DNA from: Patescibacteria group bacterium
GTDB lineage: Bacteria; Patescibacteriota; Minisyncoccia; GWC2-36-17; M10-OD1-4
Assembly (NCBI GenBank): GCA_038061695.1
Contig: JBBTYT010000001.1
Span: 1,339 to 65,338 of the forward strand
DNA length: 64,000 bases
Reading direction: 5' to 3'
Part shown: one piece after another, positions 21,978 to 30,385 of the stretch
Numbering within the stretch: position 1 is the first letter of the stretch
Layout: the number at the start of each line of letters is the position of its first letter
Translations under genes and position numbers: made by a program
The notes under the pieces: generated by a model
Seen by the model: the letters and a program-made list of their open reading frames with translations, nothing else
Told to the model about the DNA's origin: nothing
Database searches by the model: none

Positions 21978-22535
21978 ATGCAGAATACTCAAGTAGATTT
22001 TTTAATTAACGCGACAGAGGGCGTTGCAAATTCTGGAGTATTTCAGTCGGATGCGTTTTTGGCTTTTTTTTGGATTATTAAATTTATATTTTTGACACTT
22101 GCGGTAATTTTTTTTCTGCACATCATTTATCTTATTTTTAAAATTAATACTATACAAGGAGAATTTAAATTTTATAAAGATCTTTTAACAAAAAAAAATA
22201 CTTTTCAGCATAAAGGAGAATTTGCCGTAAAATGGAGAATAGTTAAAGAGAGGGCTTATAAAATACAAGAAGCGGAATATAAACTTGCTATTATTGAAGC
22301 AGATAAGTTGTTTGATGATCTTCTAAAAAAGATGAATTTAAAAGGTAATGATATGGGTGAAAGATTGAAGAATATCAATAATGAATTATTGCCATCTATA
22401 GATAGAGTTTGGAAGTCGCACAAGATAAGAAACAAGATCGCTCATGAGCCGGATTTTCATTTGAGTTATAATGATGCTCAAGATGTAATTAAAAACTATG
22501 AAGTGGCTTTATATGAGCTTAAAATACTTGATTAA
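21978..22535 (+). CDS. Hypothetical membrane protein
   Basis: Single TM FLAFFWIIKFIFLTLAVIFFLHIIYLIF; no motif recognised. Confidence 0.4.
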   Translation: MQNTQVDFLINATEGVANSGVFQSDAFLAFFWIIKFIFLTLAVIFFLHIIYLIFKINTIQGEFKFYKDLLTKKNTFQHKGEFAVKWRIVKERAYKIQEAEYKLAIIEADKLFDDLLKKMNLKGNDMGERLKNINNELLPSIDRVWKSHKIRNKIAHEPDFHLSYNDAQDVIKNYEVALYELKILD

Positions 22536-22716
22536 ATTGATTTTTTGTATTAGAATAGTTTAAACTCTAAATCGTCATATGCTTTGTAGTTAAAGATTAA
22601 GTGAGTGGAGTAGTTTTTTGTTTTATTAAGAATGAGTAAGACATTTGACCATCTGAATGTCTTAATTTGAGTTCAATTCTCAAAATAAGAGTAGCAGAAA
22701 AAAGTTGATAGAATAT

Positions 22717-22789
22717 AGCGGGGTAGAGGAGCTGGTACCTCGTCGGTCTCATAAGCCGAAGGTCGTGGGTTCGAATCCCGCCCCCGCAA
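22717..22789 (+). tRNA. tRNA with CAT anticodon, possibly initiator-like because the acceptor stem appears to have an unpaired 1:72 position
   Basis: Cloverleaf by eye: D-stem GAGG/CCTC, anticodon loop CTCATAA, T-loop TTCGAAT, acceptor xGCGGGG/CCCCGCx with discriminator A. Confidence 0.6.
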
Positions 22790-22821
22790 CAAAGTTTGGT
22801 ATGGTTTTTTCCAGTGATTAC

Positions 22822-22895
22822 GCCAGGGTAGCTCAGTTGGTTAGAGCACAGGACTCATAAGCCTGGGGTCGTGGGTTCGAATCCCACCTCTGGTA
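22822..22895 (+). tRNA. tRNA with CAT anticodon (elongator Met or lysidine-modified Ile2)
   Basis: GCCAGGG-T-A-GCTCAGTTGGTTAGAGC...CTCATAA...GTGGGTTCGAATCCCAC-CTCTGGT-A. Identity cannot be settled from sequence alone. Confidence 0.65.
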
Positions 22896-22917
22896 CCGAA
22901 ACTTTATAATTTTTTTT

Positions 22918-22995
22918 GGGGCCGTGGTCTAGCCCGGTTATGACGTCTCCCTGTCACGGAGAAGATCGCCGGTTCAAATCCGGTCGGCCCCGCCA
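22918..22995 (+). tRNA. tRNA-Asp (GTC) with genomically encoded CCA
   Basis: Acceptor GGGGCCG/CGGCCCC, anticodon loop CTGTCAC, T-loop TTCAAAT, discriminator G plus CCA. Minus-strand ORF 22904-23200 overlapping it is spurious. Confidence 0.8.
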
Positions 22996-23119
22996 GATTT
23001 CTAAGTTTGAACCCCGATAAAATAAGGGGTTTTGATGATTTAGAAACCGTTATCCGAACGAGGCGCCGGTTTTTCTTAATCCTTATCAAAGGAGTAAAAT
23101 TTTGATATAATAAAATTAT

Positions 23120-25462
23120 ATGGCAAACGAAAGAAAAACCGAAATAATCACAAGAGATCACTTTTCCAATTTTTTGGATTCTATTTATATTGAAGAACAA
23201 CGCTCAGATAATCCAAAAATTGATAAGTTGTTAAAATCCGCCTCAAAAAAAGGCGGTGGAAAAGGTTATCCTGAATTTATCATTAGCTATAAAACCAATC
23301 CTGATTTATTGATTGTTGTTGAATGTAAAGCAGATGTAACCAAACATGAAAGCAAAGATCGTGATAAATATTCAGAATTTGCGGTTGATGGTGCTTTACT
23401 TTATGCCTCCTATCTCTCTAAGGGTTTTGATGTTTTGGCAATCGCAGTTAGTGGAGAAACAAAACAATCATTAAAAGTTTCTCACTTTTTGCATTTAAGA
23501 AATGAGAAAAAAGCGACCCCAATTTTCGGAGATAAATTTTTACCTGTTGATGATTATTTGAATGGATATTTGAAAAGTCCTGAAAAATTCAGACAAGACT
23601 ATATCTCCCTTTTGGATTTTACAAAACAGCTTAATGAAAAACTACATACCTATAAGATTCTTGAAAGTCAAAGAAGTTTGCTTATCAGCTCAATTTTAAT
23701 TGCTTTAGAAAATCCTGCATTTAAAAGATCGTATGCTTCGCACACTAGACCAGAAGACTTAGCTTCTTCTCTTATACAAACAGTTTTAAGTGAATTAGAA
23801 AAGGCAAATATTACTGGTAAAAAATTAGAAAATTTAAATACACAATTTAGTTTTATAAAAACTGACACTTCTTTATCAAAAAAAGAAAATATTTTGAAAG
23901 AAATTATTGACGAAATTGACGAAAATATAAATATTTTTATTAAAACTCACAAATATTTTGATGTATTAGGACAGCTCTATATTGAATTTTTGAGATACGC
24001 AAACAGCGATAAAGGTTTAGGAATTGTTTTAACACCTCCGCATATTACAGAACTTTTTGCAGATTTGGCACAAGTAAATAAAAACTCTATTGCCTACGAT
24101 AATTGTACTGGAACAGGCGGATTTTTGATTAGTGCAATGAAAAGAATGATCGCAGATGCAAAAGGTGATGAAACAAAAATTAAAGAAATAAAATCAAAAC
24201 AGCTTATTGGAACGGAATATCAATCACATATTTTCGCTTTGGCGGTTTCTAATATGTATATCCATCAAGATGGAAAAACGAATATCATAAATGGAAGCTG
24301 TTTTGATGAGGAAGTTATTGAAGAAGTTAAATCAAGAAAACCAACAGTTGGATTTTTAAACCCGCCTTACAAATCAAATAAAAAAACAGATACTGATGAA
24401 TTAGAATTTATACTAAACAACTTAGAGTGTTTAGTTGACGGAGGAACTTGTGTTGCGATTGTACCAATGAGTAGTGCTTTAGCGATGAAAGGGAAAACCT
24501 ACGAAATTAAAAAGGAATTATTAAAAAAGCATACATTAGAAGCAGTATTATCAATGCCTAATGATTTATTTATTGATTCTGATGTTGGTACAGTTACTTG
24601 TATTATGGTTTTCACTGCTCATAAACCACATTTTCAAGGAAAAAAAACATTTTTTGGATATTTTAAAAATGATGGATTTGAGAAAAGAAGAAAAGGAAGA
24701 ATTGAAATTAATTGTCAATGGAAAGATATAAAAAATGAATGGCTAAAGGCATATTTAAACAAAGCCAATATTCCTGATTTAAGTATTAATATAGAAGTAA
24801 CGGCAAATAATGAATGGTGCCCAGAAGCATACTTAATTACAGATTTTACAAAAATAAATAATAATAATTTTATTAAAAATCTAAAAGAACATTGTATTTA
24901 TTTGTTTAATAACGATCTATCAAAAAATATTTCCAATAATCCTTTGGTGCAAAAAGAAATAAATATAAATTTTCAAAATTGGCAAAGGTTCAAGGTTAAA
25001 GATTTCTTCAAGGTTTATTCTGGTGGTGATAAACCAAAATCAGATGATTCAAAACATTGGAATGGTGAGATTGTTAATTCAGTAGAAAATCAAACAACAA
25101 ACAATGGAATAAAAGAAAAAATAGAATTTGCCGATGAAAATAAGATTTTTGAAAATTTTATTTCAGTTGTTTCTATCGGAGAAGGAGGTAAGGCATTTTA
25201 TCAACCAGAAAAAGGCGCTTGTTTTACTCGTGTTAAAGTCCTTGTTCCAATTAAGCAATGCAAAAATAATTTTAATAAATATCTCTTTCTGTTTTTTTGC
25301 TCCTTACTTGATATGGAAAGATATAGATATGGCTATGGCAGAGTTCTTAGCAAAGATAGATTGGGAGAAACGGAGTTATTAATACCAACAAAGAACAATT
25401 TACCAGATTGGGAATTTATGGAAAATTATATTAAATCATTGCCCTATTCTTCAAGTCTCTAA
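23120..25462 (+). CDS. Single-polypeptide restriction-modification enzyme, Type IIG-like: N-terminal PD-ExK nuclease, gamma-class N6-adenine methyltransferase and a C-terminal specificity region
   Basis: NPDLLIVVECK is a PD-x5-ExK motif. MTase motif I DNCTGTGGFLISA and motif IV FLNPPYK. The C-terminal region resembles a target-recognition domain. 780 aa. Confidence 0.6.
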   Translation: MANERKTEIITRDHFSNFLDSIYIEEQRSDNPKIDKLLKSASKKGGGKGYPEFIISYKTNPDLLIVVECKADVTKHESKDRDKYSEFAVDGALLYASYLSKGFDVLAIAVSGETKQSLKVSHFLHLRNEKKATPIFGDKFLPVDDYLNGYLKSPEKFRQDYISLLDFTKQLNEKLHTYKILESQRSLLISSILIALENPAFKRSYASHTRPEDLASSLIQTVLSELEKANITGKKLENLNTQFSFIKTDTSLSKKENILKEIIDEIDENINIFIKTHKYFDVLGQLYIEFLRYANSDKGLGIVLTPPHITELFADLAQVNKNSIAYDNCTGTGGFLISAMKRMIADAKGDETKIKEIKSKQLIGTEYQSHIFALAVSNMYIHQDGKTNIINGSCFDEEVIEEVKSRKPTVGFLNPPYKSNKKTDTDELEFILNNLECLVDGGTCVAIVPMSSALAMKGKTYEIKKELLKKHTLEAVLSMPNDLFIDSDVGTVTCIMVFTAHKPHFQGKKTFFGYFKNDGFEKRRKGRIEINCQWKDIKNEWLKAYLNKANIPDLSINIEVTANNEWCPEAYLITDFTKINNNNFIKNLKEHCIYLFNNDLSKNISNNPLVQKEININFQNWQRFKVKDFFKVYSGGDKPKSDDSKHWNGEIVNSVENQTTNNGIKEKIEFADENKIFENFISVVSIGEGGKAFYQPEKGACFTRVKVLVPIKQCKNNFNKYLFLFFCSLLDMERYRYGYGRVLSKDRLGETELLIPTKNNLPDWEFMENYIKSLPYSSSL

Positions 25463-25525
25463 ATATAACTCCTTGTAGATCAAAATAAAAACTCCCTGAA
25501 AAGCTGACGGGAAAAGCTCGATCAA

Positions 25526-25711
25526 CTAATTTGTGGAATCCACGATATCATCCGAGTAAGCAATCTGCTTTACACGAAGAGCAGAGTTAATAGCGGCTTG
25601 TTTTGAGGAATAACCCTCACTAGCAGCGACCTTCTCGCCGTTTAAAGCTTGAAGGTACCACCGATAATAACCGGCACGATTTTTGTAAATCACAAATCTT
25701 GGTTTTGCCAT
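25526..25711 (-). CDS. YegP-like (DUF1508/UPF0339) single-domain protein
   Basis: FVIYKNRAGYYRWYLQALNGEKVAASEGYSSKQAAINSALRVK matches the DUF1508 consensus (F.iyKd..GeyRwrLka.NGeiia.SegYsska.a...i.sVk). Codons are more G+C-rich than flanking host genes. Confidence 0.65.
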   Translation of the reverse strand: MAKPRFVIYKNRAGYYRWYLQALNGEKVAASEGYSSKQAAINSALRVKQIAYSDDIVDSTN

Positions 25712-26053
25712 AGATTTAATCCATTACTTTTTGTTAATTAATAGAGAGTCGACCTTTACGCTTACTCCCCACCCCAAAAACTAAAAGTTCCTAGGGAGGA
25801 GAGGTAAAGGCGACTTGATCTAATAACCACGAAAAGGTCCCTGAGGTATCCCGCCAGCTTTTCAAGGAGCTAATAATTACAATTTACGCTTTTTGAATTA
25901 TGGAGTCAAGATTAAGATATAAAATAATCCACCTCATTTTTACCCCTATTAGACTCTGGACGAGGCGTTTCAAACCATTCAGGATGAACTTTGTACATTA
26001 CCCTTAATTCGCTATACTTTTATCAATATCTTCGAATTTGAGCCACTTTCTAG

Positions 26054-26100
26054 GTTCAAAGTTCCGGAGATCGGCCCAGCCATATTTTTAAGTTTGAACC
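26054..26100 (+). repeat. Degenerate direct repeat of the tRNA-Asp 3' end plus downstream flank (putative attR of an integrated element)
   Basis: GGTTCAAAGTTCCGGAGATCGGCCCAGCCATATTTTTAAGTTTGAACC versus tRNA-Asp 22971-23013 GGTTCAAATCCGGTCGGCCCCGCCAGATTTCTAAGTTTGAACC. About 40 of 43 positions align with two small indels, including 12 identical terminal bases TAAGTTTGAACC. Confidence 0.6.
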
Positions 26101-26302
26101 GTAATGATTACAAGACTTAATGAAAGGAAGTTTTTTGAGCTTTCAGTGATGTATTCTCAACATAACAGAGCACGGATTGGTCGCGCTTTTTATTGCGACC
26201 ATTGACTTTTGCTTTAATAAATACTATTATGTTAAGTCATGATTCGGCATGTTGTTGGTCAGGTGGTCTGTTCATTCAAAACAAAATAAGGAGTGTGTTA
26301 TT

Positions 26303-26680
26303 ATGGTAAAGAAAATTTTGGTGCTGTTTCGAGATAAATTTTTTCACTGGAGGATATCTGATATGCTTAGACAAAATTATGGTCAATATACCTCAATAGA
26401 GAATGGAATTTGTTCTTTTCTTTACAACTCAAAAAACGCGTTGGATATCGTAGAAAGATTTAAAAAAGGAGGCTATGACTATCTGGTGATTATGGGTTCG
26501 TTCCAGATGAGTGATGTGTTCTGTAAAAATGGTATCAGAGTGTTGTGGCCGGAATGGGTCAAGGAAGATGATCATTCTAAAATTGAGTTTTATGATATGC
26601 ACGCCAGGCAAGGTTACCGGCTCGTTCGGTTTCGTCAGATTAAGAGTTTCACTAATGATACTCTAGAATTTGAGGATTGA
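26303..26680 (+). CDS. Hypothetical protein (island gene)
   Basis: Start chosen at the internal ATG with SD TAAGGAG 8 nt upstream (track ORF begins 26249). TTGACT-N17-TATTAT promoter-like site at about 26197-26225, preceded by a TGGTCGC/GCGACCA inverted repeat. Confidence 0.45.
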   Translation: MVKKILVLFRDKFFHWRISDMLRQNYGQYTSIENGICSFLYNSKNALDIVERFKKGGYDYLVIMGSFQMSDVFCKNGIRVLWPEWVKEDDHSKIEFYDMHARQGYRLVRFRQIKSFTNDTLEFED

Positions 26681-26767
26681 TTCATTTGGTGTTTCGGCAC
26701 CTTCACAGAATGGATATGATCGCCGAAACGATCGTGTCAGTAATGCATAAAATGAAAGGAGATCAAG

Positions 26768-27127
26768 ATGGAATACGATGAAGTCCTCAAACTGGCAATG
26801 AAGCTCGGAAAGGAGCGTCATCCGGAAGCTCCTCAACACCATCACGCGGCCTTTGTCAACTCAGTGCAGACTCTTGTTACTGGTTGGAGTGGAGGCTTCG
26901 GCGGTCCGTCCATGCGTGAGCACTGGGCGTGCCGAGTTGCCAAAGCCAAGGACACAGTCGGACAGTTCAGCTTCGACGATGCGGTGACGGCGGTTGAGGA
27001 AGCCTGTTACGGCCAACTCACCCTCGATCACGCGAACATGCTCGAAGAGGAGCACTGCTTCGATGATGCTCCTGGTGAAGTGGAGACGGCACAGTGGCTT
27101 CTGGCGATGCACCATCAGCACGATTGA
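26768..27127 (+). CDS. Hypothetical protein, conspicuously G+C-rich foreign ORF
   Basis: SD AAAGGAG upstream; His/Glu-rich product. Followed by hairpin terminator GGCACGTTTT-CCCA-AAAACGTGCC plus T-run (27154-27188). Overlapping minus ORF 26861-27193 and plus ORF 26994-27221 rejected. Confidence 0.5.
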   Translation: MEYDEVLKLAMKLGKERHPEAPQHHHAAFVNSVQTLVTGWSGGFGGPSMREHWACRVAKAKDTVGQFSFDDAVTAVEEACYGQLTLDHANMLEEEHCFDDAPGEVETAQWLLAMHHQHD

Positions 27128-27339
27128 ATTGAAGTGTGCGATAATGGGTTTCTGGCACGTTTTCCCAAAAAACGTGCCTTTTCTTTTATCCATTTTTGGC
27201 TATTTGACCGCCTTTATGTAATAATATACAATGGAAAGGTGAAAATATCACCTTTTCATTAAACATATTGATATTGCTACACTCGGAACAGGAGCGATAG
27301 TGTCTTCTGGTAAGTGCGAATTTAGAAAATAGTTTCTCT

Positions 27340-28761
27340 ATGAAAAAGATCGTCTTTTATTCTTGGCAGTCAGATTTACCTAACGGTACAAATCGTAATC
27401 TTATCGAAGGTGTTTTAAAGGATGTTGCCAAAGAAATAGGAAGTGATGAAGATACTAATATCGAGCATGTTATCGACAGGGATACTCAAGGTGTAGCCGG
27501 TGCGCCGAATATTGCAACAGCTATTTTCCAAAAAATTGATTCGGCAGATATTTTTGTCGCTGATGTATCAATAATTGGAAGTGCGAAAAAACGCGCAGTA
27601 CCTAATCCAAATGTTTTAATTGAATTAGGATATGCTCTTAAATCTTTAGGACACGAACGTATTATATTGGTTTTTAATACTGCGTTTGGAAAAATTGAAA
27701 AATTACCATTTGATCTAAGAATGCATAGAACTCTTACTTACCAATGTGCTGAGTCGGTTACAGATCGCACAGAAATAAAGAAAGGTTTAATTAGAGATTT
27801 CAGATTAGCTCTTTTAGCGGGATTTTCTCATGTAACTCCTAAAAAAGTCACAACACCTATAATTGATATCATCAAAAATAGAACGGCGAGTAAAAAAATT
27901 GACCTCAGGGCATATTTAGATGAATTATATAATGAATTGTGGAAATTACAGCCACCTATGAAAAGAGATGGCGGTACTGTACAAGATTTGTTATCTGCTC
28001 TACCAAAAACCGAAAAAATATCTGCCAAATTTGCAAAACTTTCACAGACCATCGTTTTAATGAACGATAAAGAATCATCAAGAGAAGTATTTCAATGGTT
28101 CGGTAAGTTGTTAACGAATTACGATCCAATACTAAAAGGCGATGGTAAAATATGGAACTGTGATGGAGATTTTTTTAAATTTATAGGGCATGATCTTTTT
28201 GTAAATTTTATAAATCCTTTTCTGCGAGAAGAAAAATGGGATGAAATAAAAGAACTTTTAAAAGGAATTTTATCAGTTGGGCCAACATCGTATAGCCAAA
28301 ACGATCGAAAGGAATCTTGGACAGAGTTATCCAAACATTCTCCGCTTTTAATAGATGAAGGGAAAACTAATCGCCGTGTATCTTTCCATGCCGATTTATT
28401 AAAAACCAGACACGAAAAAGGTGAATTAGCTTCCATCGTACCTTTTAAGGAATTTACTGAAACAGATTTTTTTCTCCATTTATATGGCGAAGGGATAACA
28501 CAAGATAACAAATATTACGGTAAATGGTATCCGAGAAGTGATATCTGGCTTCAGCATACTCCAAAATTTATATCTGAAGCTACTGATTATCCAACCGCCA
28601 TGAAGATATGCAATGCTCTACAAATAAGTGATGTCGAAGAATTTAAAAGACGGCTGGCACATACACAAATTAAATGGGATTGGCATTCCCCAGTTAGCGC
28701 AGCAGATATTAATAAAATTGGGAGTACTGGTGGTGCTGTTATTATTAAAATAGATGAATAA
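27340..28761 (+). CDS. TIR-like (ThsB/DUF1863-like, nucleoside 2-deoxyribosyltransferase fold) N-terminal domain fused to a roughly 300-aa C-terminal domain of unknown function; candidate anti-phage defense protein
   Basis: N-terminus KIVFYSWQSD parallels the ThsB-type RVFFSFHYQD start. ADIFVADVS and NPNVLIELGYALKSLGHERIILVFN carry the conserved Glu of the TIR/NDT superfamily. No motif recognised in residues about 170-473. Promoter-like TTGACC-N17-TACAAT at about 27195-27225. Confidence 0.5.
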   Translation: MKKIVFYSWQSDLPNGTNRNLIEGVLKDVAKEIGSDEDTNIEHVIDRDTQGVAGAPNIATAIFQKIDSADIFVADVSIIGSAKKRAVPNPNVLIELGYALKSLGHERIILVFNTAFGKIEKLPFDLRMHRTLTYQCAESVTDRTEIKKGLIRDFRLALLAGFSHVTPKKVTTPIIDIIKNRTASKKIDLRAYLDELYNELWKLQPPMKRDGGTVQDLLSALPKTEKISAKFAKLSQTIVLMNDKESSREVFQWFGKLLTNYDPILKGDGKIWNCDGDFFKFIGHDLFVNFINPFLREEKWDEIKELLKGILSVGPTSYSQNDRKESWTELSKHSPLLIDEGKTNRRVSFHADLLKTRHEKGELASIVPFKEFTETDFFLHLYGEGITQDNKYYGKWYPRSDIWLQHTPKFISEATDYPTAMKICNALQISDVEEFKRRLAHTQIKWDWHSPVSAADINKIGSTGGAVIIKIDE

Positions 28762-28930
28762 ATATGAAAAAGAAAAAATTTGATATTATAAAATTTATAA
28801 GGGAGTTTGTGTAATCACAAAGATTAACACGCGCACGGGTGGGTGGGGCAAGTGTTGTATTTATGTAGCCGACCTCTCCTCCAAAAAATCTTCGGATTGA
28901 ACCTCTTCTTATAACCTCGCAATTAAGAAA

Positions 28931-28960
28931 AACAGAAATCTTTAAATTTCTGTTTTTCTT
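28931..28960 (+). terminator. Rho-independent terminator at the distal end of the accessory region
   Basis: AACAGAAAT-CTTTAA-ATTTCTGTT perfect 9-bp stem followed by TTTCTT. Confidence 0.6.
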
Positions 28961-28994
28961 GCATTAAAGCTCTAATTATTCTAAAATATCTGGT

Positions 28995-29357
28995 ATGATA
29001 GATAAAAGAGAAATAGGTAAAATATTACTTATAACGATAACCTCTTTTTTGGTATTTCTTTCGATCTTATTTAAGGTGGATCCTAAAAATGCGGAACCAT
29101 TGGAATTTATAGCTTTTTATGTCAGTATATTCCTATCGCTTTTCGGGTTATTTTTCTTAGTCGGATTTATGGTGATGCATTTAAGCAAAAAATCTGACTC
29201 GCTGACATTTTATCAATCTGCTTTGCATGGGGGTTTACTCTCTCTTCTGCTCGTAGGTTTAATTATGCTTCAGCATTTGGGATATTTTTCATTTTTAAAT
29301 ATAATAATTTTTTCTTTAGGTGTGATATTTTTAGAATTTACTTTTTCAAAGAGATGA
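28995..29357 (+). CDS. Hypothetical polytopic membrane protein
   Basis: Three to four hydrophobic helices; stop overlaps the pheS start (ATGA). Confidence 0.45.
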   Translation: MIDKREIGKILLITITSFLVFLSILFKVDPKNAEPLEFIAFYVSIFLSLFGLFFLVGFMVMHLSKKSDSLTFYQSALHGGLLSLLLVGLIMLQHLGYFSFLNIIIFSLGVIFLEFTFSKR

Positions 29358-30385
29358 CGATTGATTTTAATGAATTAAAAAAAGAAGCGGATGGGGAGCT
29401 TAAAAAAATAGAGAGCCAAGAAAAACTTGAGCTTTTTAGGTTAAAATATTTTGGCAGAAAGGCGGGTATTTTAAATGATATTTTAAAATCTCTCAAAGAT
29501 TTATCAATTGAAGAAAAAAAAGAGGTTGGCAAGTTTGCAAATGAATTAAAAATATATCTTGAAAATGAAATAGATATAAAAAAAGAATCTCTCTTATTTG
29601 GTGATATAAAAGAGAGAGAAAAGAAAGAGAAGATTGATATTACTGTCCCGGGAAAAAAAGTTTTTAGAGGATATATTCATCCGTTGACTCATGTTATGAG
29701 AAAGGCGGTTTCAATATTTGAATCTATGGGATTTGAGGTTGTCTCCGGTCCAGAAGTTGAAACAGAGTTTTATAATTTCGATGCTTTAAATATACCAGCT
29801 TCTCATCCATCTCGCGATATGCAAGATACTTTCTGGCTTGATGTGCCAGGACTTTTAATGAGAACTCAGACATCATCTGTGCAGATAAGATTTATGAAGG
29901 AGCATAATAAACCTCCATTTAGAATAGTTTGTCCAGGAAGAGTCTTTAGAAAAGAGGCAACTGATGCTACGCATGAGATGCAATTTTATCAGATGGAATG
30001 TCTTGTTGTTGCAGAAAATATTTCTTTAGTCAATTTAAAATCAATTCTTGAATTATTTTTTAAGAAATTATTAGATAATAAGAAGATCAAGGTTAGATTT
30101 AGACCGTCTTTTTTCCCATTTGTTGAGCCTGGAGTAGAGGTGGACATCCTTTGTTTTAAATGTTCTGGAAAGGGATGTCCATTATGTAAAGAAACAGGTT
30201 GGATAGAGGTTGGTGGAGCAGGAATGGTGCATCCTAAGGTTTTAAAAGGAGTTAATATTGATATTTCAAAGTATAGAGGTTTTGCATTTGGTATGGGACT
30301 GGATAGAATAGCGATGATAAGATACGGAATTGATGATTTGCGTTTATTTTACAACACTGATATGCGATTTTTAAAACAATTTTAA
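29354..30385 (+). CDS. pheS: Phenylalanine--tRNA ligase alpha subunit
   Basis: Class II aaRS motifs (FRxE-like RVFRKEATDATHEMQFYQMEC, GxGxGxxR GFAFGMGLDRIAMIRYG); 343 aa. Confidence 0.9.
   Translation: MTIDFNELKKEADGELKKIESQEKLELFRLKYFGRKAGILNDILKSLKDLSIEEKKEVGKFANELKIYLENEIDIKKESLLFGDIKEREKKEKIDITVPGKKVFRGYIHPLTHVMRKAVSIFESMGFEVVSGPEVETEFYNFDALNIPASHPSRDMQDTFWLDVPGLLMRTQTSSVQIRFMKEHNKPPFRIVCPGRVFRKEATDATHEMQFYQMECLVVAENISLVNLKSILELFFKKLLDNKKIKVRFRPSFFPFVEPGVEVDILCFKCSGKGCPLCKETGWIEVGGAGMVHPKVLKGVNIDISKYRGFAFGMGLDRIAMIRYGIDDLRLFYNTDMRFLKQF

Follow-up and report, generated by a model that had tools for sequence, protein, structure and literature searches.

A 473-residue protein encoded in a 64,000-nucleotide stretch of DNA from a Patescibacteria group bacterium (GenBank assembly GCA_038061695.1, contig JBBTYT010000001.1, positions 1,339 to 65,338 of the forward strand; the whole of this stretch is called the window below) most probably belongs to a known kind of abortive-infection defence, as a variant with exchanged domains that has so far escaped annotation, rather than forming an entirely new system. 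The gene (27340–28761, + strand) encodes a TIR-like N-terminal domain followed by a helical C-terminal domain. What is already known is bSEFIR as a validated defence; what is new here is the exchange of SEFIR for TIR on the known bSEFIR C-domain. A sequence-only reading of the window had singled the gene out as its best candidate for an undescribed defence system. This holds in so far as the current hidden Markov model (HMM) sets miss the protein and the records call it hypothetical, and goes too far in that the protein appears to be a domain-swap variant of the bSEFIR kind.

The placement of the open reading frame (ORF) by that reading was confirmed by the ORF listing, with an ATG start on the + strand, and the gene is further documented by full-length homologs, an exact-sequence look-up and an AlphaFold2 (AF2) model of the complete protein (mean predicted local distance difference test score, pLDDT, of 86.8). 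The look-up led to the deposited record MEK7452633.1, annotated as 'hypothetical protein [Patescibacteria group bacterium]'. Homologs number at least 1,699 in a word-indexed search (E ≤ 1e-3), and almost all of them align end to end and are approximately 470 residues in length; every named homolog is labelled hypothetical, and a literature search found no publication describing the TIR-headed family. With one genome scanned per GTDB species, relatives were found in at least 514 genomes from more than ten phyla, including Saccharibacteria, Paceibacterota, Cyanobacteria, Proteobacteria, Bacteroidota, Acidobacteria, Chloroflexota, Planctomycetota, Myxococcota and Armatimonadota, across which the distribution is patchy. 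These near-full-length homologs and the number of genomes with relatives show that the ORF is no chance reading frame but a genuine, conserved gene. Its G+C content (0.344) compares with 0.332 for the genome.

The C-terminal domain (residues 174–462; 27859–28725, + strand) is predicted to be helical and is probably a sensor or regulator. It had been described as uncharacterised in the sequence-only reading, a description that can be withdrawn. The window C-domain aligns with that of the SEFIR-headed protein P0230 with a BLASTP E-value of 1e-30 (28% identity over 267 residues), and a library-wide phmmer search with the C-domain gave E-values of 6e-21 for P0230 and 5e-23 for a second SEFIR-headed protein, P0206. 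The SEFIR identity of these two proteins is given by their matches to the solved SEFIR domain from Bacillus cereus (5y8e; E of 7e-12 for P0230 and 5.5e-15 for P0206). Motifs common to the window and SEFIR-headed C-domains are visible by eye (DFxKFIGHELFV, RxSxxADLLxxRH, ADFFLxL and WxPxS). Among 103 C-domain carriers of approximately 475 residues, 16 match the PADLOC bSEFIR model (best E of 4.8e-65), six match PDC-S66 (1.3e-57) and three match one ThsB1 model (3.7e-63); in a STAND fusion, P0182, it is the C-domain that aligns to positions 204–364 of the bSEFIR model (412 positions). From the P0230 alignment, the common motifs and the PADLOC bSEFIR matches we therefore identify the C-domain, by homology, as the bSEFIR C-terminal domain.

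The occurrence of this domain behind other N-terminal modules was surveyed with an exhaustive phmmer search of 1.84 billion cluster representatives. The C-domain was found in 442 clusters (at 50% identity) with E ≤ 1e-3 and in 282 with E ≤ 1e-10. A full CAP12-like N-domain is present in 77 of the top 150 matches and a truncated one in 16; 37 comprise the C-domain only or have a short N-terminus (many of these are probably fragments) and 20 have a different N-terminal module. The alternative modules include SIR2_2 (four proteins), protein kinase (four), SEFIR (two), an nSTAND1 NTPase with a LuxR helix-turn-helix (HTH) domain (one), Effector-associated domain 7 (EAD7; one) and other TIR types (seven, a label assigned from N-terminal sequence patterns and aggregate PADLOC matches, not protein by protein). 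SIR2 and kinase domains are effectors in known defence systems. The SIR2 fusions match PDC-S65 (E of 1e-49 to 1e-59), with the match of P0239 extending into the C-domain, and the kinase fusions match the PADLOC PD-T4-6, mad6 and Stk2 models.

Conserved polar and aromatic residues of the C-domain (D275, D277, E285, E297, R346, S348, D352, R357, H358, D376, W327 and W396) would, on sequence grounds, fit a conserved ligand or site better than a protein interface that evolves fast. As many of the polar and aromatic residues are invariant, recognition of one conserved cue is suggested. We put forward tentatively, as a somewhat unlikely but possible extension, that the C-domain is an unnamed universal infection-sensing module serving at least six outputs (CAP12-like TIR, canonical TIR, SEFIR, SIR2, Ser/Thr kinase, and STAND or EAD7 adaptors) and reading one conserved small-molecule or nucleic acid cue, not a variable phage protein.

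The PHROG family phrog_11745, to which no function is assigned and which is close to the window protein in overall length (482 profile positions), matches residues 174–452 only, within the C-domain (E of 4.6e-17). Since the match is to the C-domain alone, there may be phage-encoded proteins that carry this domain behind another N-terminus; neither the phage genome collection nor IMG/VR yielded a phrog_11745 member sequence. A tblastn search of phage genomes gave no match, and the IMG/VR viral contigs gave the N-domain only, with other C-termini.

The N-terminal domain (residues 1–165; 27340–27834, + strand) is predicted to be a CAP12/Pycsar-like TIR domain and a probable NAD+ N-glycosidase effector. 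Three sequence elements had been recognized as a TIR pattern from the sequence alone, and all three map onto predicted TIR-fold elements of the AF2 model: KIVFYSWQSD is carried by strand A (residues 3–8), ADIFVADVS by strand C (residues 71–75), and NPNVLIELGYALKSLGHERIILV covers helix C (residues 90–103) and strand D (residues 108–113). The conserved loop DRDTQGVAGAP (residues 46–56; 27475–27507, + strand) lies between strand B and helix B, at the TIR BB-loop position, and from the TIR topology is presumably the BB-loop. In the 58 family members D48, T49 and G54 of this loop are invariant and D46, R47, G51 and P56 are at least 90% conserved; segment 48–56 has low pLDDT in the model. The loop between strand C and helix C contains a β-hairpin (residues 80–87; 27577–27600, + strand), for which DSSP assigns strands at residues 80–82 and 85–87 of the model. 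In a TIR atlas, a C-C loop extended by such a hairpin is given as a hallmark of CAP12/Pycsar TIRs, SfTIR-STING among them (10.64898/2026.04.30.722052), and the modelled window N-domain shows the combination of flavodoxin-like TIR fold and C-C loop β-hairpin by which this subtype is recognized.

The motif PNVLIELGYA (27607–27636, + strand) contains the putative catalytic residue Glu95 (GAA, 27622–27624). Residues N89, P90, N91, V92, E95 and G97 are invariant in the 58 family members and in 51 diverse N-domains. We infer that Glu95 is the equivalent of the catalytic Glu of TIR domains and nucleoside deoxyribosyltransferases (NDTs); the only sequence alignment obtained, with the NDT structure 6qai, was not significant (E of 0.78), and residue-level alignment to a solved CAP12 TIR gave nothing significant.

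CAP12/Pycsar is the best-matching TIR subtype for the N-domain by both HMM and Foldseek comparison. The best-scoring Pfam family is PF10137 (CAP12/Pycsar TIR; 21.1 bits, E of 3.3e-4, residues 75–112 only), with a score that falls under the gathering threshold of 24.7 bits. It is matched by 19 of 20 distant relatives that share the N-domain only, compared with two of 20 for PF05014 (E ≤ 0.01), and is precomputed for seven of 120 homologs among the matches listed. The best matches of the window protein are to PF10137 and to CBASS TIR effectors, and in PADLOC to TIR-effector models only, while PDB sequence searches with the protein, the full-length profile and the N-domain profile gave no significant match. 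The strand A sequence FYSWQSD is a pattern that we take to be of the TIR type, not the glycine-rich first-strand motif of the NDT type. The PF10137 ranking, the C-C hairpin in the model and the strand A pattern favour a CAP12/Pycsar-type TIR. The proposal of a ThsB-like TIR/NDT-fold domain made in the sequence-only reading is thus upheld for the TIR-like fold, as modelled, and not for the likeness to ThsB, CAP12/Pycsar being nearest. DUF4062 (Swarozyc/NIR) was considered and rejected; it is a different TIR-like family to which the window protein has no match at E ≤ 1.

Like the C-domain, the N-domain occurs in other combinations. The N-domain HMM matches 20 proteins (E of 1e-36 to 1e-81) with C-termini that are unrelated to the window C-domain and that fall into at least ten unrelated classes, and the Glu corresponding to Glu95 is invariant in these 20 proteins. 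N-domain proteins with other C-termini are encoded by Providencia and Proteus conjugative plasmids, and in IMG/VR they are present on 23 viral contigs. Within the family the mean pairwise identity is 61.7% for the N-domain versus 43.4% for the C-domain. Both modules are shuffled independently, with a constant enzyme-like head and exchangeable tails, as is expected for sensor–effector immune proteins. On a Ruegeria plasmid (NZ_CP065363.1; locus L008, 3252–6266) an N-domain protein with a different C-terminus is encoded by the third gene of an AbiEi–AbiEii operon, and the start of this gene overlaps the AbiEii stop codon; the arrangement may be a three-component AbiE variant.

The closest characterized counterpart is bSEFIR, a validated single-gene defence from Bacillus sp. 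NIO-1130 that protects against phi29 and is found in 460 genomes from more than 20 phyla, with enrichment in defence islands (Millman et al., 2022; 10.1101/2022.05.11.491447). Among defence domains that cleave NAD+, SEFIR is now grouped with TIR and SIR2 (10.64898/2026.01.28.702374). The window protein resembles bSEFIR in being the product of one gene (approximately 470–490 residues) with an N-terminal domain of the STIR superfamily followed by a homologous helical C-domain of approximately 290 residues, in having no conserved partner and in its patchy spread over many phyla. It differs in that its N-domain is a CAP12/Pycsar-like TIR with no SEFIR family match, and the protein does not match the bSEFIR HMM (PADLOC PDLC03957). 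The bSEFIR authors left out cluster members with a TIR match stronger than their SEFIR match (10.1101/2022.05.11.491447), a rule under which the window protein would be excluded.

Other TIR and SIR2 systems share some of these features. The likeness to CAP12 (TIR-STING) and Pycsar PycTIR lies in the N-terminal TIR domain (followed, as in TIR-STING, by a C-terminal sensor), in the β-hairpin of the C-C loop and, putatively, in the conserved helix C Glu, whereas the cyclase partnership and the cyclic-nucleotide sensor domain that define those systems were not found for the window protein. A stand-alone TIR-SAVED effector protects and depletes NAD+ without its cyclase, sensing host-made cyclic di-AMP (10.1101/2025.06.19.660554); it is a precedent for a TIR-plus-sensor protein that acts alone, but neither its SAVED sensor nor its cyclic di-AMP ligand is indicated here. 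PDC-S65 (SIR2 with the C-domain), PDC-S66 and DSR-type SIR2 proteins likewise combine an NAD+-directed N-terminal effector with a C-terminal module, but have a SIR2 effector fold in the place of TIR, and the PDC systems are candidates. Thoeris ThsB is also a TIR-fold protein of bacterial immunity, but the window protein has no ThsB match in Pfam or PADLOC. The statement in the sequence-only reading that no ThsA-like or cyclase partner is adjacent is supported for the seven flanking ORFs scanned (21978–29357), none of which is ThsA-like; no search for ThsA-like genes was made in the remainder of the window.

The approximately 110 loci examined revealed no conserved partner of any sort. Clustering of the four neighbours on either side (approximately 85 loci) gave only two recurrent families: a cyanobacterial phosphoketolase, which is vertical synteny, and a large serine recombinase, which lies directly beside the TIR gene in at least nine loci from several phyla (L003, L005, L062, L012, L115 and L118 among them). 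Loci L003 (8001–11144) and L005 (8001–11432) share DNA comprising the TIR gene, a convergent recombinase and a conserved 113-residue ORF, which is possibly a 3-kb mobile cassette. The two neighbours on either side of 57 homologs belong mostly to housekeeping Pfam families, with a few ParE, PIN, Uma2, PLD, DDE and methylase families (a raw tally without a background). No nucleotide-salvage neighbourhood, the consistent context that the sequence-only reading had said would tell against a defence role, recurs among them. The TIR gene lies purely amid housekeeping genes in several loci (L001, L006 and L007) and is neighboured in L115 by an island of restriction–modification (RM), GmrSD and DpnII genes with a serine recombinase. 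In L116 it adjoins a D5-type primase, which suggests that it is part of a mobile element, and in L117 a SIR2 fusion lies between an IS3 transposase and a KAP NTPase.

The closest relatives (87–94% protein identity) have the gene order serine recombinase, XRE HTH, TIR gene, NUDIX. The XRE-family HTH gene (57–67 codons; L011 1736–1939, L114 185–388 and L119 5823–5996) ends 4 nt before the TIR gene, which suggests a lineage-specific transcriptional regulator. As a general partner it was ruled out, being present in two of 111 loci by jackhmmer, plus L119, and absent from the window and from relatives that are more distant. NUDIX was also rejected as a partner; it is seen downstream of the closest relatives only (L118 and L119) and is therefore probably a host flanking gene. 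The window and L011 have 89% DNA identity that is restricted to the segment from the ATG at 27340 to approximately 28798, some 40–60 nt past the stop codon. In the alignments the NUDIX gene is reduced to its 5′ end, a 16-codon stub (28764–28814, + strand) at which the horizontally shared segment stops on the 3′ side; the rest of NUDIX is absent. The confinement of identity to the ORF and a short tail with the NUDIX stub indicates that the TIR gene was recently acquired horizontally as a tight single-gene segment.

The modelled fold, the conserved residues, the two-way shuffling of modules, the bSEFIR C-domain homology, the stand-alone and mobile genetics and the patchy multi-phylum spread lead us to favour, with moderate confidence, a self-contained, single-protein antiviral abortive-infection sensor–effector in which the C-domain senses and the TIR domain oligomerizes and hydrolyses NAD+ via Glu95. 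On the pattern of TIR-STING, TIR-SAVED and bSEFIR, it would be the C-domain that keeps the protein inactive until an infection cue is detected. An active oligomer of TIR domains would then form and cut the nicotinamide–ribose bond of NAD+ by means of Glu95, and the resulting NAD+ depletion would stop phage replication. The NADase chemistry, the oligomerization and the anti-phage phenotype are carried over from CAP12/Pycsar TIRs, bSEFIR and TIR-SAVED, and a sensor role for the C-domain is proposed alongside them.

Two alternatives to this sensor–effector concern its chemistry. The N-domain might be an N-glycosidase like NDT, MilB or DNPH1 that acts on (modified) nucleosides or nucleotides instead of NAD+, in defence against phages whose DNA precursors are modified or in salvage. 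We regard this as improbable, given that PF05014 scores 13.2 bits against a gathering threshold of 28.8 bits and is outperformed by PF10137 among the distant relatives, that strand A is of the TIR and not the NDT type, that salvage neighbourhoods do not recur and that the C-domain swaps among SEFIR, TIR and SIR2, all of which are NAD+-directed. The N-domain could instead be a signal-generating, ThsB-like TIR that converts NAD+ to a cyclic adenosine diphosphate ribose-type or other signalling nucleotide, which would activate an effector encoded elsewhere in the genome. The lack of any conserved partner, the proximity of the N-domain to CAP12/Pycsar TIRs, which are terminal NADase effectors, and the fusion of the C-domain to SIR2 and kinase, the effector domains of known defence systems, make this quite improbable.

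Two further alternatives concern the role of the gene. It might be an addiction or competition module of a small serine-recombinase element, that is, a regulated toxin that mainly stabilizes or benefits the element that carries it, with anti-phage immunity not its main role. The recombinase that adjoins the gene in several phyla, the regulator- or antitoxin-like position of the XRE HTH gene in the closest relatives, the joining of one relative to an AbiE toxin–antitoxin operon on a plasmid and the movement of the gene as a tight single-gene unit are all in keeping with this idea; however, most loci have neither recombinase nor HTH gene, and the window copy, which has neither, is still intact. 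Carriage by mobile elements is typical of true defence genes, and the idea therefore overlaps with the sensor–effector; as the main role, we give addiction or competition only a small chance. The least probable alternative is that the gene is a non-functional passenger in this genome, a recent acquisition, stripped of its upstream regulator and downstream neighbour, that is not expressed or cannot be activated. It is true that this copy lacks the HTH gene and recombinase found in the closest relatives, that NUDIX is reduced to a stub and that no clear Shine–Dalgarno sequence is visible 5′ of the ATG, but the ORF is full length with all invariant residues intact, a promoter-like site lies upstream and the G+C content is near that of the genome.

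Two small ORFs upstream of the TIR gene (26303–26680 and 26768–27127) had been suggested as further components in the sequence-only reading. They were ruled out as partners: in 90 loci carrying a relative, tblastn found no homolog of either and hence no co-occurrence with the TIR gene, and terminator- and promoter-like sites intervene. No significant match to Pfam, PADLOC, NCBIfam or PHROG was obtained for either of them; the strongest, for ORF 26303–26680, was to PADLOC PDC-M51A (E of 0.012). ORF 26768–27127 (119 residues) has a G+C content of 0.567, compared with 0.332 for the genome, and is probably a foreign high-G+C fragment. A consensus scan, which gives pattern matches only, placed a terminator-like hairpin (27154–27178; 10-bp stem with five GC pairs) with a T-run, tail TTTTCTTTTA, 3′ of this ORF (27154–27188 in all, + strand). 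A σ70-like promoter candidate, TTGACC-17-TACAAT (27204–27232, + strand; ten of 12 positions match, as a pattern only), lies 108 nt 5′ of the start codon. Both sites are between the small ORFs and the TIR gene. Between the TIR gene and the next gene (28995) there is a perfect, AT-rich 15-nt inverted repeat with a 6-nt loop and no clear T-run (28925–28960), which may be a weak terminator or a regulatory hairpin.

The TIR gene had also been placed inside a tRNA island. Repeats of the tRNA-Asp 3′ end do lie nearby, but they bound only a type IIG RM gene and a DUF1508 gene, and the TIR gene is outside them. A 30-nt direct repeat (22984–23013 and 26071–26100; 27 of 30 positions identical), made up of the last 12 nt of tRNA-Asp and 18 nt downstream, encloses approximately 3.1 kb with the RM gene (23120–25462) and the DUF1508 gene (25526–25711, − strand). 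The repeat pair looks like the attL and attR of an element inserted at tRNA-Asp, but the segment contains no integrase ORF. The RM gene is 1.9 kb upstream of the TIR gene (PADLOC E of 7e-160). A 30-nt inverted repeat (25483–25512 and 25849–25878; 80% complementary) lies on both sides of the DUF1508/HVO_2922-family gene, which may be a small cassette bounded by it. In an Rfam scan of 22500–29400, three tRNAs alone reached the threshold.

If the assignment is true, PADLOC and DefenseFinder-style bSEFIR models overlook a large related set merely because the N-domain differs, and a candidate NAD+-depleting immune gene is added to Patescibacteria. The family is also a natural module-swap experiment, with one C-domain joined to six outputs and one TIR domain to at least ten C-termini, which helps to assign sensor and effector roles and offers a handle on the trigger of bSEFIR. 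The most interesting point is what the shared C-domain recognizes. If it is indeed a universal sensor, its ligand would explain how bSEFIR and the PDC-S65 and PDC-S66 candidates are triggered, the TIR-headed form would be the most frequent architecture in the set of proteins nearest to the window protein, and Patescibacteria (candidate phyla radiation, CPR), with their reduced genomes, would have in the TIR-headed protein one of their few abortive-infection systems.

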